Below, in pieces: positions 5,056-36,585 of a stretch of DNA of 49,045 nucleotides; positions within the stretch are counted from its first letter, which is position 1, and every line of letters begins with the position of its first letter. A model generated the notes under the pieces. That model ran no database searches and was not told the DNA's origin. It saw nothing but the letters and a program-made list of their open reading frames with translations. Position numbers and translations under genes: made by a program. Source of the DNA: Klebsiella pneumoniae (GTDB lineage: Bacteria; Myxococcota_A; UBA796; SXON01); contig CAMBIK010000002.1 of NCBI GenBank assembly GCA_945867435.1, forward strand, positions 1 to 49,045, in the 5' to 3' direction.

Positions 5056-5841
5056 TCAGCTCACCTCATCGACCCGAGCGATGACGGTGGTGATGTTGTC
5101 GTCCCCGCCACGGTCGCACGCGAGCTTTACCAGGTGCCGGCACGCTTCCTGCGGGGACATCGAGCGGACCGATTCACCCAGGTCTGCAGGTTCCACGAGG
5201 TTGGAGAGCCCATCGCTGCACAGGACGAACTTGTCACCGCGGCGGATCGCTCGCACCTGAATGTCGACATCTACGTCTTCAAGGTAGCCTAAGGAGCGCG
5301 TGATTACGTTCTTCAGCTTGTGGGTCTTGGCCTGATCGGGCGTGAGCAACCCGGCCCGGATGCGTTCGTTCACCAGCGAGTGGTCCTCGGTGAGCTGTTC
5401 GATCCGCCCGTCGCGAACGAGGTAGCCCCGGCTATCGCCCACATGGGCGACATAGGCGTTGTTGCGGTCGAAGAGCAGCACGAGACAAGTGGTGCCCATG
5501 CCTTGGTACTCGGGCTCGGCAGCGGCCTTTTCGAAGATCCGCTTGCCCGCGAGTCGCACGGCATACCGAAGCCGTTCGCGCGCGAACTCCACATCACCCT
5601 CGGCGCGGGCGGCTTCGACCTCCGGCGTCGTGACCGGCCCCGAAAGGACTTCTTCTACGGTATTCACCGCGATGGCACTGGCGAATTCGCCGCCGGCGTG
5701 TCCGCCCATACCATCGCAGACGACGAACAACGACAGCTCGTCATTGATGAGGTAGTTATCCTCGTTGTTCGTTCGCTTTACGCCAACATCCGTGATTCCG
5801 CAGGAGGTGATGCGCATGGGGTGGTGGTGCCAGTAGCGCAC
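5056..5841 (-). CDS. PPM/PP2C-family Ser/Thr protein phosphatase
   Basis: Motifs GITDVGVKRTNNEDN, VVCDGMGGHAGGE, VLCSDGLSN and GGDDNITTV. The GTG at 5841 is preceded by AAGGGGG; an alternative ATG at 5817 gives MRITSCGITD. Confidence 0.9.
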   Translation of the reverse strand: MRYWHHHPMRITSCGITDVGVKRTNNEDNYLINDELSLFVVCDGMGGHAGGEFASAIAVNTVEEVLSGPVTTPEVEAARAEGDVEFARERLRYAVRLAGKRIFEKAAAEPEYQGMGTTCLVLLFDRNNAYVAHVGDSRGYLVRDGRIEQLTEDHSLVNERIRAGLLTPDQAKTHKLKNVITRSLGYLEDVDVDIQVRAIRRGDKFVLCSDGLSNLVEPADLGESVRSMSPQEACRHLVKLACDRGGDDNITTVIARVDEVS

Positions 5842-5874
5842 TGGCCCCCTTTTCGCAAAACTCAGCAGGTGACT

Positions 5875-6681
5875 TTATGCGCCCTCGAATCCCGGGGCGG
5901 CCGCAGCGATGCGTCGCCAACCGGCGAGGTTGACTTGCTCGGCCCGGGCACCGGGGTCGATGCCGGCTGCCACACACAGGGCCATGGCCCCTTCGCGACC
6001 GAGACTGGAGCCGAAGGCGTTGGTCAGGGTCTTTCGCCGGGCCGAGAAGCCGAGGCGAACGATGCGGTCGAAGCCTTCGCCAGTCGGGCCGCCAAAGTCT
6101 GGGCTCGAATGCGGCGTGAACCCCACGACCGCGCTGTGGACCTTGGGTGCCGGATGGAAGGCGCCTGGCGGCAGGGAGACCAATCGTTCCACCGCAGCTC
6201 GCGCCTGAATTTGCACGGACAGCGAGCCGTAAACCTTCGATCCGCTATCGGATTCGATGCGGTCGGCGACCTCGCGCTGAAACATCAACGCCATCGGCAC
6301 CCGCAGGCCCAGCAGGCGCAGGCAGAGCGGCGTGGCGATGTTGTAGGGGAGGTTGGCCACCACGCGGTCTACGGTGGGAAGAGCGATCCGGAGGGCATCC
6401 CCCTGGATGAGCTCCACGTCGGGCACGACCTCGGGCAGGGCCGCGGCGAGGTCGCGGTCCAGCTCGATCGCGACGATGGTGGCACCCGCGCGAGCGAGCG
6501 AAGCCGTGAGGACACCCAGGCCCGGCCCGATCTCCAGGACCCGTTCTCCGGGGCGCACGCCGGCCCGCAGTACAATCGTATCAGCCAGCGCGTCTGAAAC
6601 GAGGAAGTTTTGCCCGAAGCGACGGCGCGCGCGGCCCTCGAGGTCTCGAAGTCGCTGCGCGGGGTGCAGGGTGAACGTCAT
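5875..6681 (-). CDS. rsmA: 16S rRNA (adenine1518/1519-N6)-dimethyltransferase RsmA/KsgA
   Basis: ATG 6681 gives MTFTLHP. Motifs: RFGQNFL, VLEIGPGLGVLT (SAM site), NLPYNI. The ATG overlaps the tsaD stop (ATGA, 6678-6681). The track start at 6792 is rejected because that segment is Arg/Gly/Pro-rich. Confidence 0.92.
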   Translation of the reverse strand: MTFTLHPAQRLRDLEGRARRRFGQNFLVSDALADTIVLRAGVRPGERVLEIGPGLGVLTASLARAGATIVAIELDRDLAAALPEVVPDVELIQGDALRIALPTVDRVVANLPYNIATPLCLRLLGLRVPMALMFQREVADRIESDSGSKVYGSLSVQIQARAAVERLVSLPPGAFHPAPKVHSAVVGFTPHSSPDFGGPTGEGFDRIVRLGFSARRKTLTNAFGSSLGREGAMALCVAAGIDPGARAEQVNLAGWRRIAAAAPGFEGA

Positions 6682-7664
6682 GCGCCGACCTCCCATCGGG
6701 CGCGGGCCGAGCGGTCGAGCGGCCACGGTGCCTCGCCTTGGGCCCACCGGGCCGCGGCCACATGGCCGATCATTGCGGCGTTGTCGGTGCAACGAGATTT
6801 CGGCGGCAAGAAAACCTCCAAGCCTGTATCGACCAGGGCCCGGCGAATGTGTTCGTTGGCTGCGGCGCCGCCCCCGATGGCGAGCCGCCTCAGACCCGTT
6901 TGGGCGACCCCCTGCTTCACCCGGTCCACCAGGTAGCGCGCGACCGTGTCTTGAAAGGAGGCCGCGACATCCGCCGGGGAGGTCTCCGGGTGGCGGTCAA
7001 TCCATGTGCGGACGGCGGTTTTCAGGCCGGAGAAGCTCAGGTCCATCGGCCGAGCAGCGGGGCGGGGAAGCGGAAACGCCACCGCGCGCGGGTTGCCTGA
7101 CTTCGCCAGAGCTTCGATGGCCGGACCGCCGGGGTAGCCCAGACCGAGCATCCTTGCGACCTTGTCGAAAGCCTCGCCCACGGCGTCGTCTGTGGTTGCG
7201 CACACCGCCCGGTAGTCTGCCATCTTCCTGGCTTCATAGAGTGTCGTATGACCGCCGGAGATCACCAGGGAGAGGAAGGGAAAGACCGGGGAGGGGTCGT
7301 CGAGCTGGGCGCTCAGCAGGTGGCCTTCCAGGTGGTTCACGCCAAAATACGGCACCCCCCAGCCGACGGCCGCCGCCTTGCCGAACGAGAGCCCCACCAG
7401 CACCGCGCCGATGAGCCCCGGACCGGCGGTGGCCGCCACGAGATCAGGTCGGTCCAACCCGGCCTCCATGAGCGCGGCGCGCACGGTCGGCACCATCTGT
7501 TCGGCGTGCGCACGCGACGCGATCTCGGGCACGACCCCGCCGTAGCGTGCGTGCATCGCCTGGGAGTGCACGACGTCTGCGAGGATGCGGGTGCGGCCCT
7601 GCTCATGCCTCACCACGGCCACGGCGGTCTCGTCACAGCTGGTTTCAATGGCAAGAACGTTCAC
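6678..7664 (-). CDS. tsaD: tRNA N6-adenosine threonylcarbamoyltransferase TsaD (Kae1/Gcp)
   Basis: GTG 7664 gives (M)NVLAIETSCDETAVAVV. Motifs: YGGVVPEIASRAH, NHLEGHLL. The upstream part of the track ORF (to 7958) overlaps the haem gene and is Arg-rich. Confidence 0.92.
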   Translation of the reverse strand: MNVLAIETSCDETAVAVVRHEQGRTRILADVVHSQAMHARYGGVVPEIASRAHAEQMVPTVRAALMEAGLDRPDLVAATAGPGLIGAVLVGLSFGKAAAVGWGVPYFGVNHLEGHLLSAQLDDPSPVFPFLSLVISGGHTTLYEARKMADYRAVCATTDDAVGEAFDKVARMLGLGYPGGPAIEALAKSGNPRAVAFPLPRPAARPMDLSFSGLKTAVRTWIDRHPETSPADVAASFQDTVARYLVDRVKQGVAQTGLRRLAIGGGAAANEHIRRALVDTGLEVFLPPKSRCTDNAAMIGHVAAARWAQGEAPWPLDRSARARWEVGA

Positions 7665-7671
7665 GGTGCGA

Positions 7672-9210
7672 TCAATGCTGCACGCGAAGCCGGTAGGTGG
7701 CTTCGTTAAAACGGCCGCCATCCTGCCGCGAATCGTGGCATTGGATGCACTGGGTGGTCGGCGGCGAGCGCACCATGTGTGCGGCAGTCGGCTGCGCCAC
7801 ATGATCGCGACCCGCTCCGTGGCAACTTTCACAGCCGACATCGGCCAGCCCGTGCAGGTCGCGCGGGTCGTGCGGACCCTCCTCGCTCTTGGCCCCCGTG
7901 ACATGGCAGCCGAAGCAATCGCGGTCGAACTGCCGTTCATCTGCCACCAAGGCCGCATAAGCTCGTGCGTGCCCGGTGGTGGACCACTGGCGATACGCCT
8001 CGACGTGACAGCCCTGACAAATGGCGTTGCCTACGAAGGGGCCCATCCCGACGATGCCGCCCGCCGTGGGAAGGGGCGTGGCGTCCGTTTGGGCCGGCTC
8101 GCCGGTAGCGTCGGTTCCCGGGTTTCCGGTGAAGGCGGCCTTGAATGCGGCGACGAGGGCCTGGGTTGGGGCGTGTTCGCCGGCCTCCGTTCCCAGGGAG
8201 CGCAGCTGGTTCCGGACGGTGCCGTGGAGCCCCGGTACCGCCAGCGAAGCTTCGAGCGCCGCCCGGGCTGTGGCCGCCTTGCCCGTCCAAAATTCTTCTT
8301 GGCGGGTGAGCCGTTCGATCGACTTCGGGTTGTCTGCCGCGGCCTTGCGAGCCGCGAGATCCTTCAGCTTGGCATCGGCGGCATCGACGTCGGAAGCGTG
8401 GGACGCCCCTTCACCGGAATCCCGCCAGCTGATTGCGCCCGGAGTCAGCGCCACATCGAGGAGTCCGAGCAGGCGGCCCCGGGAGCCGGAGCTGAGCGCG
8501 AGCCCACCGTTAGCCATCGGTGCGGGGTTGAGCAGACCTTCGATGGAGTCGCTGCGCACCATGAAGTCAACGCCGGTCGCGCGCTTGGCGAGGTCCAAGT
8601 CCCTCCCGCGTTCGAGGTCGGCCAGCACGACGACAACCACGTCGTCTCGGATGACCGATTCGAGCACTTGGCCGGGATCCCGAACCGTGCATCCCTCAAG
8701 CTTGAGGCTCGGGCTAGCGATCCCGAAAACCTTGATTTTTACTCCACCCTTTTCGAACTCCCGGACCGTGGGCCAGGGGAGCGGGTCGGCACAGTCCATG
8801 TTGCTCACGACGTAAGGCAGCGAATGGGCGGCACCGTTCTGCTCGACAAAGGCCCGACCCAACGCAAAGTCGCCTCGACCGGGGAGCATGGCGTCGATGC
8901 CGCCCAGGGCGAACGCCTCGGCGATCAGCTGGGCTTTGGCCTCTTTCTCCAGCCGCTCGTCTTCGCCGAGGGTGTGGCTGCGCCGGAACGCGTGCCCCGC
9001 ATCCACCACAAGCAGGTCACCGCGAGGGAACGTGGCCAGAACTGAGTTTCTCCGGGACAGACCGCCCTGGGGGTGCTTGGGTCAGCCACAGGGTTCGATC
9101 TCGCCATCCACCGCGCCCTGATAGGCGAGGGTGAAGGCGGGCGACGTGGACGAAGTCGCTACCGGTTCGGTCGTTGTAGAACAGGCGGAGAGCAGCGCGG
9201 CCAGGATCAT
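7672..9210 (-). CDS. Lipoprotein with a degenerate metallophosphoesterase/5'-nucleotidase-like domain and a C-terminal tetrahaem cytochrome c domain. It is full length only if the in-frame TGA at 9082-9084 is decoded (candidate selenocysteine)
   Basis: The track ORF 7672-9009 (GTG start) has four CxxCH sites (CQGCH, CFGCH, CESCH, CIQCH) but no signal peptide. In the same frame upstream, ATG 9210 overlaps the DUF4340 gene stop (ATGA). It encodes MILAALLSAC (lipobox LSAC) ...GAVDGEIEPCG, then TGA, then PKHPQGGLSRR...DLLVVDAGHAF. G/C3 bias is continuous across the TGA. The conservative alternative is 7672-9009 alone. Confidence 0.6.
9052..9070 (-). promoter_or_regulatory. Candidate bacterial SECIS-like hairpin downstream of the in-frame UGA
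   Basis: RNA with U of UGA numbered +1: UGACCCAAGCACCCCCAGGGCGGUCUGUCCCGG. C15,C16 pair with G33,G32. A17 is unpaired. G18-G20 pair with C31-C29. The apical loop contains G22 G23 U24 C25 U26. The 2 bp / bulge at +17 / stem / GGUC-loop geometry matches what I recall for E. coli fdhF. Confidence 0.5.
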
Positions 9211-10760
9211 GGTGCGCTTCCCGTTTTCGGTGATTCCTGTTTCCGTTTTTCGATACGCTCCTGGCGCTCCCGTTCCCGCTCCGCGCGTGTCTCGGCATCG
9301 ATCCTCGCCTTACGCTCCTCCTCTTCGGCCTCCCCGCGAGCGTGGCGTCCATGTTCGCGATGCAGGTCCTTCAGCACATCGATGAGTCCATCTTCCACGA
9401 TGTACACCTCGGGGTGCCCCATGTGGCGTGCGTACCATCGGGCGTGCTCTCGCCCTTCTTCATCCACCTTGGGGGCGGCCGCCTTCCCCAGCACGATTGT
9501 GGCGGTGCGGGCGTCGGCGTCCACCATCGCCACGCGGGCAATCGGGTGGTCAAAACCGTAGTCGGCGTCGGATGTCACGGTCGAGGTCACGAACTCGTCG
9601 CTCTCGATGTCGGCGGCCCTGCCCGCCACGCGGCGCGGGGTGCTGCCCGGGACGATGACGCCATCGTTCCACTGCCATTCGTCGGCCGCGTGAAGCACGG
9701 TCACGCTGCCGGCGAGCGCGGCATCATCGGGGTCGAGAGGGAAAAACTCGCTGGTGAGCGAGGTGAGCTTGTTCTGGTCCATCCTTGCGAACTGCCGGAG
9801 GCGGAACTCGGCGGGATCGCGCAGGTAGTCGTCGAGGAACACGTCGCGCACGAGGTACACAAACGGTTCGCCCACCAGCCGCGCGTAGGCCAAGGGGTAT
9901 TCGCCATCCTTCTCGCCGGAGTCTTTGCCGAGCTCCAGACCGAGGGGCTCCCGGCCACCCGAGAACGTGATGGTGATGGTGGCGCGTGGTGCGGCAAGGC
10001 CGAAGGTGTCCACATCCGCAGGTGTGCTCTCGACAAAGCGGATGGCCTTCATCGCGCTCACTCGGCCGAGCAGGCCGCGCACTTCCATGTCGGCAGCCGC
10101 AAAGGCCACGGGTTCCAGCAGATCCCAGAACCGTTCGCCGGCACGCTGAATCTTGAGCCGCTTTCCTCCAGGTAGAACGGCGGCAATGCCATCCACATCC
10201 TTCGAGTCGAAGCTGGCGAAGCGCCGCTCGCGGAACTCGTTGAGCTCCAGGGAGTAGTAGTCGACCGCGGACTTCTTCACGGTGAAGATCGCTTCGTCGC
10301 CCGTGCGTTGGATGTAGAAGCTGACGCCCGAAGGATTGGGATCTCCGGCGTCGAAGTCGAGGACTTGCCCGTCCCTCAGCGTTAGCTTCACATGGATCGC
10401 GTTGGGGCCGAGGCCGTAGAGAGCGCCCTCGTCGGCTTCGTCCACCACCGAGGCGCGGGAAACGAGGTCGTGAAGCTGGTGTTTGACCCGGTTCACCATC
10501 TGCCGGCTGGCGCGCATCTCGGTGCCTTCGATCCACCAGCTGTCGGGGCGTTCGACCAGCGAGATGGTGCCGTCGGGCCGGGTGACATCGATCCTCAGGA
10601 GGTCGGCCTTTTCGAACGTGAACAGGGCCACGCCCTCGACTTTCTTGAGTTCAGCCTTGCGTTGCAGCGGCGTGAGCTCGGTCGGCTTCAGCGAAAAGTA
10701 GCCAGCGACCAGCAAGAGCAGGGCCACCAGCGCGATCAGGGTGCTGCGGAACGGCTTCAT
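9207..10760 (-). CDS. DUF4340-like membrane-anchored protein (accessory to GldG-type ABC systems) with a charged E/R/K-rich C-terminal tail
   Basis: ATG 10760 gives MKPFRSTLIALVALLLLVAGYF (N-terminal TM). The pattern ...LFTFEKADLLRIDVTRPDGTISLVERPDSWWIEG... is typical of DUF4340. The tail reads EAEEEERKARIDAETRAERERERQERIEKRKQE. It lies 2 nt downstream of the GldG-like gene. Confidence 0.75.
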   Translation of the reverse strand: MKPFRSTLIALVALLLLVAGYFSLKPTELTPLQRKAELKKVEGVALFTFEKADLLRIDVTRPDGTISLVERPDSWWIEGTEMRASRQMVNRVKHQLHDLVSRASVVDEADEGALYGLGPNAIHVKLTLRDGQVLDFDAGDPNPSGVSFYIQRTGDEAIFTVKKSAVDYYSLELNEFRERRFASFDSKDVDGIAAVLPGGKRLKIQRAGERFWDLLEPVAFAAADMEVRGLLGRVSAMKAIRFVESTPADVDTFGLAAPRATITITFSGGREPLGLELGKDSGEKDGEYPLAYARLVGEPFVYLVRDVFLDDYLRDPAEFRLRQFARMDQNKLTSLTSEFFPLDPDDAALAGSVTVLHAADEWQWNDGVIVPGSTPRRVAGRAADIESDEFVTSTVTSDADYGFDHPIARVAMVDADARTATIVLGKAAAPKVDEEGREHARWYARHMGHPEVYIVEDGLIDVLKDLHREHGRHARGEAEEEERKARIDAETRAERERERQERIEKRKQESPKTGSAP

Positions 10761-10762
10761 GG

Positions 10763-12220
10763 CTACGCCCCCCGCCGAGAGGCCCACACGGCCGCGCCAA
10801 GGAGCAGCACCGACATCGGACCGATGCCGATCGCGAGCCAGCGAATCTGCTCGCCATCTTCGGCCGTCAGCGCCAGCCTTCGCACCGAAGCCGGGCGCCC
10901 CACGACGGAGATCCGTTCTTCATCGCCCACCAGCCAGCGAAAGCTGTTGAGAATAAAGCTGGCATTTCCTGGTCCTTCGCCGAGCAGCGAGTTTGTGAAC
11001 ACGTCGGCATCGCCGACCAGCAGCACGCGGGCTGCCCCGTTGGTGACCAGCCCGGAGTCGCGCGACACGTCGAGCGCGACCGCCATGGTGGCCGGACCCG
11101 CGCCGTCGATGTCGGGTTCGAACTGCGCCTGGCCGTTCTTGATCTCGCCGCCCCTGTCGATCCAGCCATCGCGACTGGTCTCCAACACGATGGTGCTGCG
11201 CACGCCCTCCATCGCGGGCACGGAGGTTTGGACCGGCGCGATGCCGCTGAGCACCGTGACCAGGCTGTCTTCAGCGAGATCCTTGGTGATCGGGTGGGAC
11301 TTGTACCGCGGCACAGGGCGATCGGGGTAGGGGAAAACCAGCAGCTTGTCGAGAACCCGACCGCTCGGCACCGCCACGCCCAACCGCGCGAACAGGTTCG
11401 GCACTGGAGAGTCGGGGTCTACCGCCAACAGGACCGCGCCGCCCCCGCTCAGGTAGGCGAGGAGCAGATCCTCCTCCAGGGCGGGGATGGGCACCTTGGG
11501 GCGCAATACGGCTACGGCCGCGGCGTCGTCTGGCACCCGGGGAACCGCCATGTCGCGCTGGCGCATGAAGTCGAGTCGCTTGAGCTCGTAGTCGTCCTGC
11601 GCGAGCACCGCGGCCGCTTCAGAGAGACCTCCGAGGTCGTGGTTTTCGGGATCGAGCTCGCCGTGGCCCACCAGCGCGTACACGACGCGCTTGTTTTCCG
11701 CCATCAGCTGCGAGAACGCACGGTTTACCGCCTGTTCCCCCAGGAATTCCAAGTGGCGCGCTTCGGCTTTCCCCACGCGCTTGAACAGCTCGCGGTCCTT
11801 GATGTCGACCCGCGCCGCGCCGCGCTGCACCACGACGGTGCTGTAGTCGGTGACCCCGAGCTTCTCGGCCGTAAGGCGGTCTTTGTCGAAATCGATGAGG
11901 TGCACGTCGACCATCTGGGAGTTGTAGTCCAGCTCCTCCAGCAAATCCTCGAGGGCGCGGTCCTTGAAGTAGGTCTCCTTTTTCCCCCGCTGGCCGCTGA
12001 ACGCCGTGACCGTCACGCGGGCCCCCCCTTGATCCAGCAGGGCGAGCTTGGTGCGAGTGTCGGCCAGGAGCACGGAGCCCTGGTCGGCGCTCAGGTCGGC
12101 GCGCACGCGTCGAAGGTCGGCCAGAAGGTACCCCACGCAGGCACAAGCGAGGACGAACGCGCTTACGAGCAGCGCGTTGCTTCCCGCCGCCAACCGCCGT
12201 TGTGATTGTTTTAGCGCCAT
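10763..12220 (-). CDS. GldG-like auxiliary component of an ABC-2 transporter (ABC_transp_aux family)
   Basis: It has an N-terminal TM (ALLVSAFVLACACVGYLL) and a C-terminal TM (IRWLAIGIGPMSVLLLGAAVW). The central region reads VTVTAFSGQRGKKETYFKDRALEDLLEELDYNSQMVDVHLIDFDKD, typical of GldG-like proteins. It overlaps the permease gene end by 10 nt. Confidence 0.8.
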   Translation of the reverse strand: MALKQSQRRLAAGSNALLVSAFVLACACVGYLLADLRRVRADLSADQGSVLLADTRTKLALLDQGGARVTVTAFSGQRGKKETYFKDRALEDLLEELDYNSQMVDVHLIDFDKDRLTAEKLGVTDYSTVVVQRGAARVDIKDRELFKRVGKAEARHLEFLGEQAVNRAFSQLMAENKRVVYALVGHGELDPENHDLGGLSEAAAVLAQDDYELKRLDFMRQRDMAVPRVPDDAAAVAVLRPKVPIPALEEDLLLAYLSGGGAVLLAVDPDSPVPNLFARLGVAVPSGRVLDKLLVFPYPDRPVPRYKSHPITKDLAEDSLVTVLSGIAPVQTSVPAMEGVRSTIVLETSRDGWIDRGGEIKNGQAQFEPDIDGAGPATMAVALDVSRDSGLVTNGAARVLLVGDADVFTNSLLGEGPGNASFILNSFRWLVGDEERISVVGRPASVRRLALTAEDGEQIRWLAIGIGPMSVLLLGAAVWASRRGA

Positions 12221-12921
12221 CGACGCGACTCAAGCGAACGGGTGGTGAGGAACAGGAAGCAGAAGGCCATCGCGAGGAAATAGTAGATGTCGGCGCTGTC
12301 GAGGATCCCGCGGCCGAACGAGTCGAGATGGAGAAGCACGCCGAAGGGCTGCAGGCGGGCGCCCCACTCGTCTCCTACCAGCGCTTCCGCGCGGGAGACA
12401 AGCCAGAAGGGCAGCAGGATCAGGATTCCGCTGAGCCCCGCGGCCAGCTGGTCGTCCCAGAGCGATGAGGTGAACAGGCCGGCTGCGCAGAATGCGCCGG
12501 CCGCAAGGAACAACCCCAGGTAGGTGGTGGTGACCACTCCCCAGTCTGGATCGCCGTAGTAGGCGAGGATCAAGGGGAGCACACCGGTGCCCACGAACAT
12601 CAGGAGGCAGAGCGTAAGCGAAGCCAACCATTTGCCGATCACCATGGCGAACGGCGAGATGGGCGAGGTCAGCAGCATCTCGAGGGTGCCCTGCCGACGT
12701 TCTTCCGCGAAGTGGCGCATGGTCAACATCGGGAGGATGAAGAGCTCGGCGATCGCGAGGTTGCTGGAGAGGACACGCAGGCTCGCTTCCCCGGTAAGCG
12801 TAATGCCGAGGTAGAAGAATAATCCGCTTAGAAACATGAATACGGCGAGGAATGCGTAGGCCGTGGGGTTTACGGCGTACACGCGCATCTCCTTCTTCCA
12901 GATGGTGAAGACGGCGGTCAT
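12211..12921 (-). CDS. ABC-2 family transporter permease (GldF-like)
   Basis: MTAVFTIWKKEMRVYAVNPTAYAFLAVFMFLSGLFFY followed by about 6 hydrophobic segments. The ATG overlaps the ATPase stop (12918-12921). Confidence 0.85.
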   Translation of the reverse strand: MTAVFTIWKKEMRVYAVNPTAYAFLAVFMFLSGLFFYLGITLTGEASLRVLSSNLAIAELFILPMLTMRHFAEERRQGTLEMLLTSPISPFAMVIGKWLASLTLCLLMFVGTGVLPLILAYYGDPDWGVVTTTYLGLFLAAGAFCAAGLFTSSLWDDQLAAGLSGILILLPFWLVSRAEALVGDEWGARLQPFGVLLHLDSFGRGILDSADIYYFLAMAFCFLFLTTRSLESRRWR

Positions 12922-13847
12922 GAGGCTTCTCCTTCCCGACCCACGATCGCGATGAACGCATCTTCAAGGGTGGGCATGCGGCGTTCCAGGGCGCGAAGCT
13001 GCCACGACCCTGCGGCGGCGTTCGCGGCCAGCATCTCGCGGGGGTCGCCCGAGGCGCGCACCCTCCAGGCCTCCCATCCATCCACATTACCCATCGGTTC
13101 CACCACTTCGACCCCCGGCAGCTTTCCGAGCTGCGGACCAGCGATTCCGCGAACCTCGACGTAGGTCCAGGCGCCGCCGGGGGCGGAGGCGCGGAGCTCG
13201 GCGATGGTGCCGTTCGCCACCAGCTTGCCCCGGTTGATGACCACGGCACGGGGGCATAGCGCTTCGACTTCGGAGAGGATGTGTGTGCTGAGGATCACGG
13301 TGTGCGTGCCCGCCAGGGAGAGGATCAAGTCGCGAATCCCTCCGACCTGGGCGGGGTCGAGTCCGGAGGTGGGCTCGTCGAGGATGAGCACCGGCGGATC
13401 GTGGAGGATCGCCTGAGCGAAGCCCACGCGCTGCCGGTAGCCTTTGGAGAGCGAGCCGAGCAAGCGCCCCTCCCAGCCGCGCAACCCGACACGTTCCATC
13501 GTTTCGCCGATTCGCACGGAGCGAATCGCGCGGGGAATGGACCGGAGCTCGGCGCAGAACTGCAGGTAGGAACCGACGCTGAGTTCGGGGTAGAGTGGAG
13601 GTGTTTCCGGCAGATATCCCACCCGTTCGCGCACGGCGTAGGGCTCGTCGAACACATCAAAGCCGGCCACGAGAACCTCGCCCTCCGTGGCCGGGATGAA
13701 CCCGGTGAGGATGCGCATGGTGGTGGTCTTGCCGGCACCGTTTGGGCCCAGAAAGCCCATGATTTCGCCTTTGGGGACGGAAAACGTCACATCGTCCAGG
13801 ACGAGGCGGGAACCATAGGCCTTCCTCAGGCCGCGGACTTCAATCAT
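12918..13847 (-). CDS. ABC transporter ATP-binding protein (GldA-like)
   Basis: ATG 13847 gives MIEVRGLRKAYG. Motifs: Walker A GPNGAGKTT, signature LSKGYRQR, Walker B LILDEPTSGLD. The track start at 14108 is rejected because that extension lacks coding-like composition. Confidence 0.92.
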   Translation of the reverse strand: MIEVRGLRKAYGSRLVLDDVTFSVPKGEIMGFLGPNGAGKTTTMRILTGFIPATEGEVLVAGFDVFDEPYAVRERVGYLPETPPLYPELSVGSYLQFCAELRSIPRAIRSVRIGETMERVGLRGWEGRLLGSLSKGYRQRVGFAQAILHDPPVLILDEPTSGLDPAQVGGIRDLILSLAGTHTVILSTHILSEVEALCPRAVVINRGKLVANGTIAELRASAPGGAWTYVEVRGIAGPQLGKLPGVEVVEPMGNVDGWEAWRVRASGDPREMLAANAAAGSWQLRALERRMPTLEDAFIAIVGREGEAS

Positions 13848-13869
13848 CGGTCGGCTGGTTAACCGACCG
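13848..13869. promoter_or_regulatory. Inverted repeat filling the 25-bp divergent spacer (candidate operator)
   Basis: CGGTCGG (13848-13854) - CTGGTTAA - CCGACCG (13863-13869), with 7-bp perfect arms. An internal GGTTAACC palindrome lies at 13857-13864. It sits between ATG 13847 (minus) and ATG 13873 (plus). Confidence 0.35.
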
Positions 13870-13872
13870 GGT

Positions 13873-14385
13873 ATGTGGATGTTGTTCGTGGTCCTCGCGA
13901 TTGCAAACCCCGTCGAGAGGGTGCTGTTCGTAGTGGGCGATCGCATCGTTACCCAGAGCGATGTCGCCTTCGAGTTGTTTTTTATCGGCCACGATCGCAG
14001 CCCTTTACCCTCGTTCGCAGCCGACGCGGGCCCCGTGGCCGAGCGGCTTCGGGACATCGCCGCGGTGCGGCAGCTGGCGGGTGACACGTCTGTGTTCAGT
14101 CCGAACAATGCTGAGGTGCGGGCTCGTGCTCACGCATTTCTCACCCAGTGGCCGCGCCCTGACGATGGTCTTGCCGCCCTCGAGGCGTGGGGCATGGATG
14201 AGGCGGCTTTCCTTGGCTTTGTTTACAGTCGGCTCGTGGTCGAGAACTGTGTCGTGCGTAGCGTGCCGTTGCCCGAAGCCCCGGAGGTCGAGGCCGAGCG
14301 GCTCGCCTGGCTGGCCCGCTACGACGTGTGGGTGGCTGGGGTTCGCCAGCGGGCGACCATCCGGGAGCCGAGGGGCGCGAAGTGA
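13873..14385 (+). CDS. Hypothetical exported/membrane-anchored protein (weak SurA N-terminal-like resemblance)
   Basis: The 170-aa ORF has good G/C3. The N-terminus MWMLFVVLAIANPVERVLFVVGDRIVTQSDV is hydrophobic. I recognise no firm family. Confidence 0.5.
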   Translation: MWMLFVVLAIANPVERVLFVVGDRIVTQSDVAFELFFIGHDRSPLPSFAADAGPVAERLRDIAAVRQLAGDTSVFSPNNAEVRARAHAFLTQWPRPDDGLAALEAWGMDEAAFLGFVYSRLVVENCVVRSVPLPEAPEVEAERLAWLARYDVWVAGVRQRATIREPRGAK

Positions 14386-16095: not shown

Positions 16096-16971
16096 TCAGC
16101 GAGGTCCTGACACGTTCTCTCCCACCCATTCCGACATGCCGCCGAGCACGTTGTGGATGTGAGTGGCGCCGATGCTGGTCATGAACTCGGCCGCCGACGC
16201 GCTCCGGCCCCCACCCTGACAGACAAAGATCAGGTGCGTGGTCTGGGCAAGCTCGGCGTAGCGGTGGGGAAGCTCGTCGACCGGGATGTGCCGCGCCAGG
16301 GGGGACCGGCCCCCCGAGAACTCCTTCAGAGTGCGAACATCGACCAGAATGTAGGGAGAATCCGCCTCATTCAGCAGCGCGAGAGCTTCCGTGCTGGTCA
16401 CGTCTTTCACGCCGGCCGAGGGGGCACCGGGGGTGCGAAGCTGGCCATCGCCGTGGCTGTTGGTGGAAGGGGCTGGCCCGGCGGGGGGAGGCGGTTCCCG
16501 GCCTTCGATGCCCGACACGATGTCCAGCAGGCGGTCCACTCCCGGGAGGGATCGCTCGTTGAACCGCACGGTGCCGTCTTTTCCGATAATGACGACCTGA
16601 TCGCGGCAGGATGCCCGCAGTCGACCCGAGGCGCGGTATCCGCGCGCTGCCATCGCGAACGGGTCGTAGAGCAAGAATGTTTCCACGCCGAGCTGCTGCC
16701 GCCACGCCCGGAGCGCATCGGTTCGAGACGTGTGTACGCCGAACAAGGCACAATCGAGGGCCTCAAAGCGGCTGCGCTCCCGATCCAGGCGCTGGAGCCA
16801 TTCGCCCGTGCCCTCGTTGAGCGAGCGCATGAACACGAGCATCACATGAAGGTTTCCCTTGAAGTCGGGCAGCTTGATCCACGTGCCGTCGTCGGCCGTG
16901 AGGGACAGCAGGGTCGCCGGGCTGCCGACGGGCAGCGGCTTCCAACGGATGAGATCGAGGAGGCTGGGCAT
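16096..16971 (-). CDS. Fusion of an AhpC/TSA (peroxiredoxin/BCP)-like thioredoxin-fold domain lacking the peroxidatic Cys and a rhodanese domain
   Basis: The N-terminal half follows the Prx pattern (LPDFKGNLHVMLVFMRSLNEGTGEW...FGVHTS...FLLYDP...VVIIGKDGTV), but EGTG occupies the usual T/S-x-x-C position. The C-terminal half has the rhodanese active-site loop FVCQGGGRSASAA. Confidence 0.75.
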   Translation of the reverse strand: MPSLLDLIRWKPLPVGSPATLLSLTADDGTWIKLPDFKGNLHVMLVFMRSLNEGTGEWLQRLDRERSRFEALDCALFGVHTSRTDALRAWRQQLGVETFLLYDPFAMAARGYRASGRLRASCRDQVVIIGKDGTVRFNERSLPGVDRLLDIVSGIEGREPPPPAGPAPSTNSHGDGQLRTPGAPSAGVKDVTSTEALALLNEADSPYILVDVRTLKEFSGGRSPLARHIPVDELPHRYAELAQTTHLIFVCQGGGRSASAAEFMTSIGATHIHNVLGGMSEWVGENVSGPR

Positions 16972-31378: not shown

Positions 31379-33661
31379 TTAGTTCTCCGCGACGATCCGC
31401 GGCGTGATGAACACGAGCATCTCGCTCTGCTTTTCCGTCGAGGAGGAGTTCTTGAACAGGTACCCCAGGAGCGGGATCGACCCCAGTCCCGGCACCCGTT
31501 CGTTCGCTGCAGATTCCTCCGTAGAGTACACGCCGCCGAGCACGGCGGTATCGCCATCCGCCACCAACACCTTGGTCTCGATCTCCTTCTTCGCGATGGC
31601 CGGGCGCCCTTGAACGCTCTGGCTGAAGTCGGGGCGGTTGTTCTTGATCTTCACATCCATCGACACGTTGCCGTCGGTGGTGATGTGGGGCGTGATGTCC
31701 ATCTGCAAGACGGCGTCTACCAGCTGCACTTGCGTACCGCCGTTGGACACGGTTTCGAACGGGATGGCGGCACCCTGGAGGATCTTGGCGGTCGAGTTGT
31801 CCATGACGCTGACGCGCGGACTGGAGACGATCCGACCCCACCCATCCGATTCCAAGGCGCTCAGGCGCGCGTCGAGGTCGATGAGCCCGGGAATGCTACC
31901 CAAGGAGAACGCGAGGGCACCGCTGGAACCTGCGGTTGTGCCCAGGTCGACCAACAGGCTTTCGTTGCCGGGAGAGTAGAACTGAGAGGCGCCCGCCCGA
32001 GTGAGGCCGCCGGAAACGCCGACGGAGTTCGGGAAGAAGGCACCCGTGCTGTACCCGGTCGCGCCGGATGCATCGACACCGCTGCCCCACTGAATGCCCA
32101 ACTGCTTGACGTGCGAGCTGTTGGCCTCGACAAATCGGGCTTCGATCGACACAGAACGGTTCTGGCGGTCCACGCGCTTCAGCAGCTCTCGGATCATCGC
32201 GAGCGTGGGTTCCACGTCTTTGATGATCAGCTGGTTCGAACGGTCGTCCGTTTGGATGGAACCGCGCTCGGTGAGGAAGGCTTCAAGCTGCTTCACGGTA
32301 GCGGCAGCGTTCGCGTAGTTGAGCGGGGCCACATAGATCTGGAGCGGCTCAAGCAGCCCTTCCGCAGTCTGCTTTTCCAAGGCCGCCTGCTGCTCGGACT
32401 TGATGGTTTCGATCGGTGCCACGCGCACGATGTTCCCGAAACGCTGCGCCGCGAGGCCCTTGGACTGCAAGACGGCCGCAAGGGCTTGATCCCAAGGGAC
32501 GTCCTTCAGCTGCACGGTGACCGTGCCCTTGACGTCGTCGCTGGCCACGATGTTCAGTTCGGCGGTGTTCGCGATGAAGCGGAAAACGGCGTGGATGTCG
32601 GCATCTTGAAGATCGATGCTCATCCTCTGGCCCTTGTACCGCGAGGCACCCTGGCCTGGGGCATCGTCGGCGAAGGCCAGCGAGTTCGGGTCTTCCGAAC
32701 CGGCGCCGGCCCCGAAACGAGCCTGGGGGTCGGACGTGCGACCCGAAGCTCCGATGAGCACCTCGCCGCCTGAAGCGTTGCTCAGACCCTGCGTCTCGTT
32801 CGTTTCTGGTGAGGAAGGGGCGGCTTCGGCGCTCTTTTGCACCTGCTCTGCGCGGGCTTGCACCAGCGAAGCGGGGTTGGCGATTTCAATCGTGTACAGG
32901 TCGCCTGCACGCTTCACTTGGTACTCGGCACTTTGCCGAAGGGAAATCTCTACGCGGGTGCCGGCACGAGTCGGGCGCGCCTGCACGCCGATGACCGGGC
33001 TGAAGAAGCGGCTGCTGTCGATCTCGCGGGACAGGGACCCAGGCATGACCGCGCCGGGAAGGTCGACGACGATGCGCGTAGCTGTGGGCTGGGAGACCGC
33101 GGGGGTGACGCCCTGAACGCCAAGGACGACTCGGCTGGTCGATTCGTCGAATGCGAAGTCCAACGTGGTAAGGGCGGGGCCTTCGATGGCGGCCGCAGGA
33201 CCGCTGAGACGCCCGTTGCCGAGCGCACTTGCCAGCGGATCGACCTCGGCCCCGGCGGTAAAGGACACCACCAAGTCAGTGCCGTCCTGACGCAGAGCGT
33301 GCGTGAAGGGGCCGACGAGGTACAGGGTGAGACGTACGACATCCGAACCATCGTTGAAGCTTGATAGTTCTCCACGGGTCACCATGCCGCCCGCGCCGAC
33401 GGTCGCTTCTGGCGCGAGTGCGCTCGCCGGGAAGTCGATCACCAACCGGTCCGGACTCGACGCCTTGAAGGCGCTGTAGGCAGGACTGTCGCCGGAGAGC
33501 GGAATCCGCACTTCCGTGGAGTCGTCGGCACCCGTTACTGCCGCGGTACCGACGGTCGTCGGCGTGGCTGCGAGCGCAGGACCGCCAATGAAGGCCGCCC
33601 AGCACAGCACACCCAGGAGCACGCGTGGCCTCATCATCACTCCGTTGAAAGGTAGCATCAT
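31379..33661 (-). CDS. pilQ: Type IV pilus secretin PilQ (AMIN domains plus secretin)
   Basis: Signal peptide. AMIN-like repeats (RLVIDFPASAL..., RIVVDLPGAV...). C-terminal secretin motif: VLGGVYSTEESAANERVPGLGSIPLLGYLFKNSSSTEKQSEMLVFITPRIV. ATG 33661 overlaps the pilP stop. Confidence 0.95.
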   Translation of the reverse strand: MMLPFNGVMMRPRVLLGVLCWAAFIGGPALAATPTTVGTAAVTGADDSTEVRIPLSGDSPAYSAFKASSPDRLVIDFPASALAPEATVGAGGMVTRGELSSFNDGSDVVRLTLYLVGPFTHALRQDGTDLVVSFTAGAEVDPLASALGNGRLSGPAAAIEGPALTTLDFAFDESTSRVVLGVQGVTPAVSQPTATRIVVDLPGAVMPGSLSREIDSSRFFSPVIGVQARPTRAGTRVEISLRQSAEYQVKRAGDLYTIEIANPASLVQARAEQVQKSAEAAPSSPETNETQGLSNASGGEVLIGASGRTSDPQARFGAGAGSEDPNSLAFADDAPGQGASRYKGQRMSIDLQDADIHAVFRFIANTAELNIVASDDVKGTVTVQLKDVPWDQALAAVLQSKGLAAQRFGNIVRVAPIETIKSEQQAALEKQTAEGLLEPLQIYVAPLNYANAAATVKQLEAFLTERGSIQTDDRSNQLIIKDVEPTLAMIRELLKRVDRQNRSVSIEARFVEANSSHVKQLGIQWGSGVDASGATGYSTGAFFPNSVGVSGGLTRAGASQFYSPGNESLLVDLGTTAGSSGALAFSLGSIPGLIDLDARLSALESDGWGRIVSSPRVSVMDNSTAKILQGAAIPFETVSNGGTQVQLVDAVLQMDITPHITTDGNVSMDVKIKNNRPDFSQSVQGRPAIAKKEIETKVLVADGDTAVLGGVYSTEESAANERVPGLGSIPLLGYLFKNSSSTEKQSEMLVFITPRIVAEN

Positions 33662-34146
33662 TTCTTCCCCGCCCCGGCGAAGCCGATGGACACTGGGTTG
33701 ACCACGAGCTCGCCGTCGAGCATGCGGTATTCTTCTGTGACGATCACCCCGTTTTCAGAGATGGAGGTCACCTTGCCCCAGTTGGTGCCCACGTACGTTC
33801 CTTGACGAGCCACATGGCCGGTTCCCTCGGGATCGACGAGCAGGGCGCGAGGTGCATCGATGTTCCAGATGACGCCGCTGAGCACGAATCGGTCGGTGCC
33901 CCAACGTTGGAGCGGCGGGGCATCCGGCAATACGGCGGTTGCGGAGGCAGCACGCGCCAGGAAGCTGCTGAACGGATCTCGCTTCCCTGCGGGGTTGTAG
34001 AACCATTCTTCGGTGGCTGATGCCGCCGTTTCGGCCGCAGTCGATTTCGGTGCCTTTTGTGGCACCGGCGCGGTGGCCACGCCTGCGTCCAGGGATTCCC
34101 CGCAGGCGCACAGCAGGATCAACACGAGCGACGAGGAGAGCTTCAT
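33658..34146 (-). CDS. pilP: Type IV pilus lipoprotein PilP
   Basis: Lipobox: MKLSSSLVLILLCAC. PilP-type C-terminus: RFVLSGVIWNIDAPRALLVDPEGTGHVARQGTYVG. It sits between pilO and pilQ. Confidence 0.88.
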   Translation of the reverse strand: MKLSSSLVLILLCACGESLDAGVATAPVPQKAPKSTAAETAASATEEWFYNPAGKRDPFSSFLARAASATAVLPDAPPLQRWGTDRFVLSGVIWNIDAPRALLVDPEGTGHVARQGTYVGTNWGKVTSISENGVIVTEEYRMLDGELVVNPVSIGFAGAGKK

Positions 34147-34769
34147 GCGCCCCCCTTGTTCTTCTTCTTGTCGTTCGTTGCCTTCGCCTGTTTGATCTCG
34201 TCTTCGGTCAGGAAGCGGTAGGTCACCACCTTCCCCTCGATGGTAAGTGTGGTTTCGGCACCGGCTTCCTTGGGTTCCACCATCTCAATGTCTTCGACGG
34301 ACACGATGCGGCCCATCTTGCCCACTCGGTCGAAGAAGATCGCAACCTCATGAAAGCCGCCTTCCATCACGATCTGCACCGGCACTTCGGCGTAGTATTC
34401 GCGGGTCAGTTCGGGTAGAGGTTGGAATTTGCGAACTTCAAGTCCAGATTTCCTTGCCAAGGCATCGATTTCGCTCAGCAGTCCGGGGATCTCGCGATCG
34501 TTCGGAAGTTCCTTCAGGGCCTGCTTGAGATCGGCTGTGAGCTGTTCCAGTTCGCTTTCGAACGCACCGCGGTTAGCGGCGCGGGCCTTTACCTCGTCTC
34601 GCTTTACGCGCAGGGAATCGCGCTGAGCGGAGGATGAAGAGATGCTGTCCATCGCAGGTACGATCAGCGAAAAGAACAGCATGACGACGAGGAGCAGGTA
34701 GCTGACCCCGTACACGACCACGCGCTGCGATCGTGGCAGGCGCGCGAGCCGCTCGAGAATTTGGCTCAT
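34143..34769 (-). CDS. pilO: Type IV pilus assembly protein PilO
   Basis: Single TM, then a coiled coil. Motif: IPGLLSEIDALARKSGLEVRKFQPLPE. ATGA overlaps at both ends. Confidence 0.9.
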   Translation of the reverse strand: MSQILERLARLPRSQRVVVYGVSYLLLVVMLFFSLIVPAMDSISSSSAQRDSLRVKRDEVKARAANRGAFESELEQLTADLKQALKELPNDREIPGLLSEIDALARKSGLEVRKFQPLPELTREYYAEVPVQIVMEGGFHEVAIFFDRVGKMGRIVSVEDIEMVEPKEAGAETTLTIEGKVVTYRFLTEDEIKQAKATNDKKKNKGGA

Positions 34770-35491
34770 GGGGTCGCTCCTGCGGCGGGAGGTGCGGCCG
34801 CGGGTGCGGCGGGCGCGGCCGCAGGTACGGCTGCCGGACCCGGCGCGGCTGGGTTGGCCGCCGCCGCGGGTGCAGGAAGGGCAGCACCGGCGGGAGCCGC
34901 TGCCCCGGCGGGAGCCGGCAAGTCAGGTGTTTTGGCGGCTCGAGCGATTCGCCGCGCGGTGAGCGAGAATTTCTTCAGCACGACCGTCGCGCTTCCTTGC
35001 TTGATGTCCAGCGCCTCGATGTCCTGCAGGTACACCTGTTCGACGTAGTCGCTGGCTTCTAGCGCCCGGAGGAACTGGCTGATCACTTCGTTGCTGACCG
35101 CGACCCCCACGATGTTCATGGCACCGCCATGTTCACGGACTTCGGTGAGCTGCAGTTTTTCGGGAGCGGCCAACGCCAGCTCATCGAGCATGTGGGCCGG
35201 ACCGGACTTCCGTGAGCGGAGGTCGTCGATGACCGCGAGCTTCCTTTCCAGCTCTGCCTTGAACTTCTCCATTTCGTCGACGCGCTGCACGTCCTCTGCG
35301 AGCTTGGAGATTTCGGCGTTAAGAGTTTCGTTGTCGGACTTGACCTTGGACAGGCGGATGCCGAGCCCCGCCCAAACGACCAAGCAGCCGCCCAGGATGA
35401 TCGCGCCGAACAGGCCCGCGAGAACGGCCTCTCTGCGCAGCGACTCTGCCTTCCGGGTCTGCCGGACGGGAAGAAGATTTATTCTGATCAT
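34766..35491 (-). CDS. pilN: Type IV pilus assembly protein PilN with an Ala/Pro-rich C-terminal tail
   Basis: ATG 35491 overlaps the pilM stop and gives MIRINLLPVRQTRK. TM: AVLAGLFGAIILGG. The tail runs PAPAGAAAPAGAALPAPAAAANPAAPGPAAVPAAAPAAPAAAPPAAG. Confidence 0.9.
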   Translation of the reverse strand: MIRINLLPVRQTRKAESLRREAVLAGLFGAIILGGCLVVWAGLGIRLSKVKSDNETLNAEISKLAEDVQRVDEMEKFKAELERKLAVIDDLRSRKSGPAHMLDELALAAPEKLQLTEVREHGGAMNIVGVAVSNEVISQFLRALEASDYVEQVYLQDIEALDIKQGSATVVLKKFSLTARRIARAAKTPDLPAPAGAAAPAGAALPAPAAAANPAAPGPAAVPAAAPAAPAAAPPAAGATP

Positions 35492-36585
35492 TTGTCGTCT
35501 CCCCGACGCAGACCGAGGCCGACCGCGATCGCCGCCTGGCCGGCTACGTCGTGCAGGAAGCGGGGATTGAAGGCCCGCTCGTCGACTGAGATCCGACGGA
35601 AGGGATCCACAAGGGTGACTTGAGCGTTGCACACGCGTTCGATGGCTGTAGCCAACCCTGGCGTGCGCGCCGCACCGCCCGACAGGTAGACCCCCCCTAG
35701 CGGAGTGCCGCCCGAAGTGGAGAGGAAGAAGTCGAGTGAGCGATGGATCTCGGTGGCGATGTTGTCGGACACGCCGGACAGGACGCGTTCCACTTCTTCG
35801 GGCACCACGGCTGCGCGGTCGCGCTCGTTGCCGCCTACCTTCAGCGCCTCCGCCTCTTCAAAGCTCACGTTGAGCGTCCGTTGAATCTCTTCCGTGTACA
35901 GGCGGCCACCCATGCCCACGTCGCGCGTGAAGGCACTGGTGCCCCCTCGAAGTACGTTGATGTTCACGCTGGCGGCACCCACATTGACCAGCGCCACCGG
36001 CTGGGGGCCGACGTCGTAGTTCAGGGTGAACATGTTCTCCAAGGCGAACGCGGCCACATCGATCACAGCGGGGCGGAGCCCGGCCTCAAACAAGAGCGCG
36101 CTGTATTCGTTGATCAAGTCCTTCCGCGCCGCCACCAGCAAGACTTCCATCTGCCCGGCTTCATCTGCGTGCTGGCTAAGGATGTGAACATCAATGTTCA
36201 CGTCGTTTACATCGAAGGGGATGTACTGTTCCGCCTCCCATGTGATGGATTCCTCGAGTTCATCCCGCGACATTTGCGGCAGGGGGATGCGCTTGATGAT
36301 CACGGAGTTGCCGGACACGGCCACGCACGCATCCTTCGTCTTGACCTTGTGCCGAGCCAGAAGCTCCCGGATGGTCGCCACGATGGCGCTCGTGTTCATG
36401 AAGGCTCCGTCTACAACGGCTTCGGGCGGCAAAGGAGCCGCACCAAAGTGTTTTAGACGATACTTCCCGGATTTCTCGAGTTCGAGTTCAAGCAGCTTGA
36501 CGTGGCTGGAGCCGATATCAAGCGCAACAGCGCTACGGGAACGGGCGAGCAAAGCCAACGGGTGAATCCTTCGAGGCGTGGCCAT
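35488..36585 (-). CDS. pilM: Type IV pilus assembly ATPase-like protein PilM (actin-like fold)
   Basis: VALDIGSSHVKLLELE. 365 aa. It is the first gene of the pilMNOPQ order. Confidence 0.93.
   Translation of the reverse strand: MATPRRIHPLALLARSRSAVALDIGSSHVKLLELELEKSGKYRLKHFGAAPLPPEAVVDGAFMNTSAIVATIRELLARHKVKTKDACVAVSGNSVIIKRIPLPQMSRDELEESITWEAEQYIPFDVNDVNIDVHILSQHADEAGQMEVLLVAARKDLINEYSALLFEAGLRPAVIDVAAFALENMFTLNYDVGPQPVALVNVGAASVNINVLRGGTSAFTRDVGMGGRLYTEEIQRTLNVSFEEAEALKVGGNERDRAAVVPEEVERVLSGVSDNIATEIHRSLDFFLSTSGGTPLGGVYLSGGAARTPGLATAIERVCNAQVTLVDPFRRISVDERAFNPRFLHDVAGQAAIAVGLGLRRGDDK

Follow-up and report, generated by a model that had tools for sequence, protein, structure and literature searches.

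In the 49,045-nucleotide stretch of contig CAMBIK010000002.1 (assembly GCA_945867435.1) analyzed here, which is referred to below in its full length as the window, a gene on the minus strand contains an in-frame UGA that is followed by a short hairpin at positions 9052-9070. Our results indicate that this hairpin is, with high probability, a bona fide bacterial selenocysteine insertion sequence (bSECIS), and that the encoded protein is a member of the known UshA-like (COG0737) CxU selenoprotein family. What was directly seen comprises the in-frame TGA, the pairing of selenocysteine (Sec) and Cys forms of the gene, nucleotide conservation, covariation, and the loss of the motif in the Cys forms. 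Throughout, the U of the UGA, at position 9084, is counted as +1, so that nucleotide n lies at window position 9085 minus n. The minus strand around the UGA reads UGACCCAAGCACCCCCAGGGCGGUCUGUCCCGGAG, and its codons are GAA CCC TGT GGC TGA CCC AAG CAC CCC CAG GGC GGT CTG TCC CGG AGA AAC. The original prediction, which had been made from the window sequence alone, placed the hairpin at 9070-9052 (+15 to +33) and its GGUCU loop at 9063-9059, and both placements were confirmed on the minus strand.

The evidence for a SECIS comes primarily from the comparison of TGA and Cys orthologues. A protein search retrieved 72 homologues, among which nearly all the close ones are truncated at the N-terminus and start just past the TGA site, many of them with 'MGGL..RR'; the distant full-length homologues carry a C-G-C motif, and the TGA aligns with its second Cys. 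In orthologue DNA drawn from GTDB genomes, metagenomes and source contigs, 26 distinct sequences have a stop in this place, always TGA and never TAA or TAG, and 93 distinct ones are Cys forms. Judging from the record titles, the TGA forms belong to metagenome-assembled genomes (MAGs) of Myxococcota, Desulfobulbia, Desulfurivibrionaceae, Oligoflexia and Acidobacteriota, along with a few labels that are probably mis-binned, and their protein identity to the window protein is as low as 23-26%. The spacing from U to the Gly-Gly pair is exactly five codons in all 26 Sec forms. The nonamer GGCGGTCTG is present in 25 of these 26 sequences compared to a single one of the 93 Cys forms (Fisher p = 2e-23; neither this value nor the related statistics are corrected for phylogeny). 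Twenty-five of the 26 TGA forms share the longer core GGGCGGUCUGYCC without change, with GGC GGT CTG and then either TCC or CCC, and in these orthologues, as in the window, GGUCU occupies +22 to +26. Likewise, at least four contiguous base pairs closing a 5-nt loop can be formed in 25 of the 26 Sec forms as opposed to 4 of the 93 Cys forms, the contiguous stem in the orthologues being 4-7 bp long.

Because the RNA signal lies in codons +5 to +10, over the Gly-Gly-Leu motif of the protein, selection on it is visible as frozen synonymous sites and as amino acid replacements that preserve pairing. Codons +6 to +9 are frozen, with GGC in 26 of 26 sequences, GGT in 25, CTG in 26, and TCC or CCC at the last position; the invariant residues upstream of the UGA vary in codon choice, with four codons each for Gly-7 and Pro-3, two for Cys-2 and three for Gly-1. 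The replacements are Ser/Pro at +9, both of which are encoded by YCC, and Leu/Arg/Gln at +5 together with Arg/Lys at +10. In the alignment of the 26 sequences, the 7-bp helix is paired in 86.8% of the cells versus 77.3% in shuffled alignments, with none of the 500 shuffles reaching the observed value, and slid registers are paired in 29-54%. The outer pairs covary: pair 15-33 is CG in 7 sequences, UG in 4 and GC in 3; pair 16-32 is CG in 18, UA in 6 and UG in 1; and pair 17-31 is UA in 14 and GC in 3, and unpaired in 9. The inner four pairs are invariant except for the alternation of U and C opposite G20 (G20-U/C28).

The loss of the signal in Cys forms is illustrated by the closest Cys orthologue (locus L170, protein P0050), which has identical synteny and reads TGT ... 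GGT GGA CTG GCG, leaving neither loop nor stem. The covariance model derived from 25 TGA-form hairpins produced a sole match in the window, to the 9052-9070 site at 56.9 bits, the next score being 11.8 bits (E 0.28) and not in frame; over 0.95 Mb of related loci, the model matched the TGA forms and nothing beyond them, and no second SECIS was found in the window. A crude scan of the window for further in-frame TGA candidates returned mostly off-frame noise, and its GC3 filter (GC content at third codon positions) missed the true site. The stem-loop is thus retained in the TGA orthologues, with the core in 25 of 26 and with covarying outer pairs, and is missing from the Cys forms, with the exception of the nonamer in one and a stem of at least 4 bp in four of the 93; these are the two patterns that the original prediction had proposed to look for, and its SECIS interpretation is supported by the comparison of these sequences.

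Two sequences depart from this pattern. The single Cys form with GGC GGT CTG, from a Thermoguttaceae MAG (L070), has a 7-residue spacer and no covariance-model match; the occurrence of the motif at a different distance indicates that the bare motif can arise by chance. The sole TGA form without the GGUCU core, from an Acidobacteriota MAG (L051:3043-3082), reads GGC GGG CTG GCC CGG CGG GCC GGC and scores 15 bits. For this sequence, RNAfold instead places a GC-rich hairpin of 9 bp, capped by a GGC triloop, at +23 to +43, farther from the UGA, so that this gene probably uses a different hairpin, which may be a lineage-specific variant of the SECIS.

The window sequence taken by itself would be only suggestive. 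The pattern TGA-N18-GGTCT is expected 0.9 times per window, and at least one match was found in 55 of 100 shuffles. Given the codon usage of the window, the probability of GGT CTN for Gly-Leu is 0.12, and that of GGC GGT CTG TCC for Gly-Gly-Leu-Ser is 0.008. Moreover, Gly-Gly-Leu is conserved as a protein motif throughout the family, Cys forms included, and GGU CUG encodes its Gly-Leu, so that the argument, put forward in the original prediction, that such a match is unlikely to be needed for anything else in a coding region does not hold. The evidence for a SECIS accordingly consists in the frozen synonymous sites and the covariation rather than in the bare match; only once the orthologues are added is the signal far beyond chance.

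The resemblance to the formate dehydrogenase element of E. coli that underlay the original prediction turned out to be real but partial. The minimal SECIS of fdhF encompasses nucleotides 15-31, 11 nt from the UGA, with a bulged U17 and G23/U24 in the loop (PMC8659212), which agrees with the numbering used in the original prediction; the 31-nt string TGACACGGCCCATCGGTTGCAGGTCTGCACC given there is also exact, since 5412 of the 5426 complete E. coli genomes contain it under fdhF with 100% identity. A more general rule for bacterial SECIS elements specifies a stem of 6-8 bp and, at a distance of about 20 nt from the UGA, a conserved G in the loop (PMC4605307). The hairpin conforms to these descriptions in that its stem starts about 11 nt after the UGA and falls in the 6-8 bp range and G23 and U24 are present in the loop. 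As in fdhF, the stem begins at +15, the loop nucleotides G22 G23 U24 C25 U26 are identical and in register, the loop lies over Gly-Leu codons, and the UGA is followed by C. The GGU CUG codons do occupy the same register in both genes, although we count them as the seventh and eighth after the UGA, not the eighth and ninth. In fdhF, however, the loop is a GGUC tetraloop closed by the pair A21-U26, whereas here it is a pentaloop, GGUCU, closed by C21-G27; U17 is bulged in fdhF, whereas in the window A17 faces C31 and the position is base-paired in most orthologues; and the lower helix that contains the UGA is not conserved in the present family. Thus, of the fdhF-type geometry that had been claimed, the loop and its spacing stand, and the unpaired +17 does not, being an A·C or A·A mismatch limited to the clade of the window.

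The two folds proposed originally treat this position differently. The alternative register (G18-C30 to C21-G27, together with C15-G33 and C16-G32) is favored at -5.9 kcal/mol, with a pair probability of about 0.94, over the register with a bulged A17 (-3.5 kcal/mol, about 0.05). In the favored register, A17 faces C31 in a 1x1 internal loop, and the stem of the window consists of 6 bp and one mismatch. The register G18-C31 with a bulged A17 was rejected both because its energy is worse and because one orthologue (L164) has A31. The unpaired +17 is confined to the window's clade, in which the codon CAG (Gln) puts A17 opposite C31, or opposite A31 in L164; in 17 of the 26 orthologues, 17-31 is paired, and the family consensus is a continuous stem of 6-7 bp with a GGUCU loop. 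This consensus resembles, more than fdhF, the SECIS of Moorella thermoacetica fdhA, which in its complex with the WH3/4 domains of SelB (PDB 1WSU) reportedly has an uninterrupted stem and a GGUCU-type loop with a G and a U read by SelB; that element occurs in another gene, and its stem differs in sequence. We also considered a lower helix pairing the UGA with +41 to +46, as in the 40-nt E. coli SECIS, and rejected it as a family feature given that only 46% of the cells are paired. In five sequences (L004, L005, L008, L163 and L164, +1 to +46), UGACCG does pair with CGGUCA about 40 nt downstream, enclosing the UGA.

Several observations weigh against the identification of the hairpin as a SECIS. 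The stability of the structure depends on the folding context. In local windows limited to the downstream sequence (from +4 to +45 down to +14 to +34), the hairpin is the minimum free energy (MFE) structure at -7.4 kcal/mol, with pair probabilities of 0.83-0.98 (0.83-0.90 for +4 to +45), and in the 91-nt segment 9020-9110, it is present in both the MFE and the centroid structures. However, in the 51-nt segment 9040-9090, which the original prediction had suggested folding, the MFE structure lacks it, so that the outcome of this check is mixed. The probability of the hairpin is about 0.4 once the UGA is included in the folding window, drops to near zero when +46 to +60 are added, and is at most 0.07 with upstream sequence as well. 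This loss from the longer-window MFE structures is due to a competing helix, CCGGAG...CUCAGUUCUGG, at window positions 9033-9054 on the minus strand (about +31 to +52), which captures the 3' arm of the SECIS stem. Furthermore, the dinucleotide-shuffle z-scores are positive (+0.85 to +1.15), that is, the region is not more stable than random sequence. Low stability is nevertheless no argument against function because the minimal hairpin of E. coli fdhF is itself weak, with a computed energy of merely -4.2 kcal/mol. The bulged U17, a determinant of recognition by E. coli SelB, is absent here, but this bulge is a peculiarity of E. coli that bacterial SECIS elements do not universally share. Among other negative results, ARAGORN detected no tRNA, including tRNA-Sec, in the 49-kb window; no selA, selB or selD was found among the approximately 30 open reading frames (ORFs) of the window annotated with Pfam; and no relevant Rfam match was obtained, either for the whole window at the gathering threshold or for 8900-9250 by E-value. 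The lack of a phylogenetic correction belongs on the same side of the balance.

The mode of action would be that of other bacterial SECIS elements. Upon arrival of the ribosome at the UGA (9084-9082), the stem-loop located 11 nt downstream would offer its GGUCU loop, in which G22, G23 and U24 are about 20 nt away from the UGA, to the winged-helix domains at the C-terminus of SelB. The complex of SelB, GTP and Sec-tRNA(Sec) would thereby be tethered at the A site, where it could outcompete release factor 2 (RF2), resulting in the insertion of Sec.

Three other explanations have to be weighed. The one that survives best, although we regard it as very improbable, is that the UGA does encode Sec, with the conserved GGGCGGUCUGYCC serving some other role at the RNA level, such as a pause or the binding of another factor, and with the SECIS located elsewhere or not needed. 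Such a role would fit the weakness of the hairpin, which is not the MFE structure in several contexts, and the absence of the U17 bulge required in E. coli, and BSepDB lists 12.6% of bacterial selenoprotein genes as having no canonical SECIS (PMC13326102). However, the loop has exactly the sequence and the distance from the UGA that experiments established for fdhF, the motif strictly accompanies TGA forms as opposed to Cys forms, and the covariation maintains the helix that places GGUCU in a loop; apart from this hairpin, no conserved structure came to light, the lower helix being paired in less than half of the cells.

Even less credible is the possibility that the TGA is a true stop, such that the locus encodes a 42-aa peptide and a separate downstream cytochrome, or is a pseudogene or the product of an assembly error. 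Automatic annotation indeed splits the locus into ORFs of 39-44 aa and 395-450 aa in all public records retrieved. The TGA, however, occupies the same codon in 26 independent, divergent assemblies, without a single TAA or TAG, and aligns with a Cys that is conserved in 93 homologues. Termination at this codon would cut off the signal peptide, together with the PCG part of the motif, from the remaining domain, and the truncated ORFs have no signal peptide, yet c-type cytochromes must be exported; furthermore, the family has been listed among the selenoproteins since 2008. Elsewhere in the window, TGA is an ordinary stop that ends about half of the 34 candidate ORFs, so that a reassigned genetic code is excluded and the code is standard.

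Read-through of the UGA independent of SelB, by a near-cognate Trp or Cys tRNA with the hairpin merely slowing termination, is comparably implausible: although the base after the UGA is C in 19 of the 26 forms (A in the other 7), UGA-C is the leakiest stop context in E. coli, and downstream hairpins can promote read-through in other systems, such stimulators need no invariant GGUCU loop at a fixed distance that matches the SelB determinants, the alternation of Cys and TGA is the signature of Sec, and members of the family are known in Sec-utilizing taxa.

We therefore retain the identification of the hairpin as a bSECIS. The features of the gene and of its RNA signal are compiled in Table 1.

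Table 1. Positions of the selenoprotein gene, its UGA and the elements of the SECIS hairpin in the window
Feature	Window position	Strand	Basis or comment
Selenoprotein gene, complete, 512 codons plus stop	7672..9210	minus	translation; ATG at 9210, stop ends at 7672
Start codon and lipoprotein-like signal MILAALLSAC (lipobox LSAC)	9181..9210	minus	lipobox judged by eye
In-frame UGA, codon 43, the sole in-frame TGA of the ORF	9082..9084	minus	aligns with second Cys of P-C-G-C
SECIS hairpin, +15 to +33	9052..9070	minus	fold, covariation, covariance model
Hairpin pairs C15-G33, C16-G32, A17xC31 mismatch, G18-C30, G19-C29, G20-U28, C21-G27		minus	
Invariant core GGGCGGUCUGUCC, +18 to +30	9055..9067	minus	G18 (last base of codon +5) and GGC GGU CUG UCC
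Apical loop G22 G23 U24 C25 U26	9059..9063	minus	G23/U24 are SelB determinants in E. coli fdhF (PMC8659212)
Four CxxCH heme-binding motifs: CQGCH, CFGCH, CESCH, CIQCH	7735..8019	minus	invariant C/H columns

The protein starts with MILAALLSAC, continues with the segment GEIEPCG[U]PKHPQGGLSRR around the Sec residue, and carries the four CxxCH motifs at its C-terminal end, where the domain matches Pfam Cytochrome_C554 with an E-value of 4e-13. From this architecture, the product appears to be a periplasmic lipoprotein of 512 residues with a C-G-U motif in an N-terminal UshA-like domain and four c-type hemes. The C-G-U motif lies near the place where, in our own assignment, the first metal-binding motif (D-x-H) would presumably be located.

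The gene is embedded in a conserved neighborhood. In the window (5056-14108, minus strand) and in related contigs (L161-L170), the gene order is ABC_tran, ABC2_membrane, ABC_transp_aux (GldG-like), DUF4340, selenoprotein, TsaD, RsmA and PP2C, and the Cys orthologue L170 keeps the same order. The start codon of the selenoprotein gene and the stop codon of DUF4340, the gene upstream, overlap in ATGA, and the same 4-nt overlap is found in orthologous contigs, which suggests translational coupling with the ABC-transporter genes. Elsewhere in the window (16096-16971, minus strand), an AhpC/TSA peroxiredoxin-like domain and a rhodanese domain are joined in a fusion that also occurs in the contig of the orthologue with 85% identity; for either type of domain, families of selenoproteins are known. 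Type IV pilus genes (PilW-like, PilQ secretin, PilP and PilM), as well as SecA, are encoded at 208-1380, 31379-36585 and 39543-42665, in keeping with the Myxococcota-like origin to which the records of the closest homologues point.

Several lines of evidence assign the protein to the UshA-like family. Zhang & Gladyshev 2008 (PMC2398784) recorded 76 Sec and 92 Cys members of this CxU family in GOS, and the family appears again in a 2022 review (PMC9312934). The GOS COG0737_UshA supplementary sequences include ...GQLDPCGUKKNPLGGLSRK...ILDAGD, with members reading DPCGUKxNPLGGLxRR, and the BLASTP comparison of the window protein with a GOS COG0737_UshA selenoprotein yields an E-value of 1e-15 over 243 residues. 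An AlphaFold2 (AF2) model of the Cys homologue P0050, which served for the fold comparison in place of the window protein (predicted local distance difference test, pLDDT, 86), has E. coli UshA and SoxB as its best Foldseek matches (E ~1e-13), and several homologues are labelled '5'-nucleotidase family' by JGI. The window protein thus shares with the family the motif block PCGU-x5-GGL-x-RR ... DAG, the CGU motif, the predicted UshA/SoxB-like fold and the abundance of Cys homologues. It differs in coming from an uncultured Myxococcota-like MAG and in its C-terminal four-heme c554-like domain, lipoprotein signal and conserved operon; neither the heme domain nor the operon is mentioned in the accessible portions of the two accounts of the family (PMC2398784, PMC9312934).

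In the P0050 model, the Gly-Gly-Leu motif begins a helix that spans residues 49-62. Residues 31-50, from the C-G-C loop onward, are the least confident part of this model, with a block pLDDT of 57-61 and values below 50 for residues 42-44; one possible reason is that the site binds a metal, a heme or a substrate that is absent from the model.

Membership in a different family of heme-containing selenoproteins, MccSep of Geobacter, was considered and rejected on architecture. MccSep is likewise a periplasmic c-type multiheme protein with one Sec, a local G-U-P motif and a SECIS-like hairpin after the UGA; however, it has five hemes located N-terminal to a near-C-terminal Sec (..IPDGUPTPNR) and no UshA-like domain (PMC13510729), whereas the window protein has four CxxCH motifs, not five, and its Sec, residue 43, lies upstream of all four hemes. 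A PDB sequence search matched c554, NrfB and 6i5b, and no other entries. In a distant homologue of 681 aa (P0064), redoxin/AhpC-TSA domains replace the UshA-like domain as fusion partners of the c554-like heme domain, a module that thus seems to be paired with more than one kind of thiol or selenol redox module.

Because both the insertion mechanism and the protein family had been known before, the original prediction is a correct but ordinary find; the present gene adds a member to a family in which the type of signal was already familiar. Its practical consequence concerns annotation. All public homologues retrieved (P0001-P0049) are mis-annotated as an ORF of 39-44 aa ending at the TGA and a truncated 'cytochrome', the start of which is an internal Met or Val, often a Met that replaces Gln/Leu at codon +5. 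Once the SECIS is recognized, the gene regains its signal peptide as well as C-G-U, the presumed catalytic site. The gene is also a clean case in which an RNA signal is superimposed on a conserved stretch of protein, the putative SelB-binding loop being written over Gly-Gly-Leu. That E. coli shares GGUCU at +22 to +26 with lineages labelled Myxococcota, Desulfobulbia and Oligoflexia suggests that the code by which SelB recognizes its target is widely conserved, which may be of help in heterologous expression.

Two further readings, which we offer together as doubtful but worth stating, concern the origin of the signal and the function of the protein. It is possible that Gly-Gly-Leu was a pre-adaptation: located five codons past the catalytic Cys, it is already encoded by GGN-GGN-CUN, and synonymous changes alone would create GGUCU at the canonical distance. 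The protein itself could represent a new enzyme type, an uncharacterized redox enzyme of the periplasm that depends on selenium and has a sulfur or selenium compound as its substrate, in parallel to MccSep. This proposal derives from the combination of a UshA/SoxB-like domain bearing C-G-U with four hemes, in a conserved operon with an ABC exporter. If the pre-adaptation is real, it could explain why the family changes so readily from Cys to Sec and back in the lineages sampled, namely Myxococcota, Desulfobulbia, Oligoflexia and Acidobacteriota.

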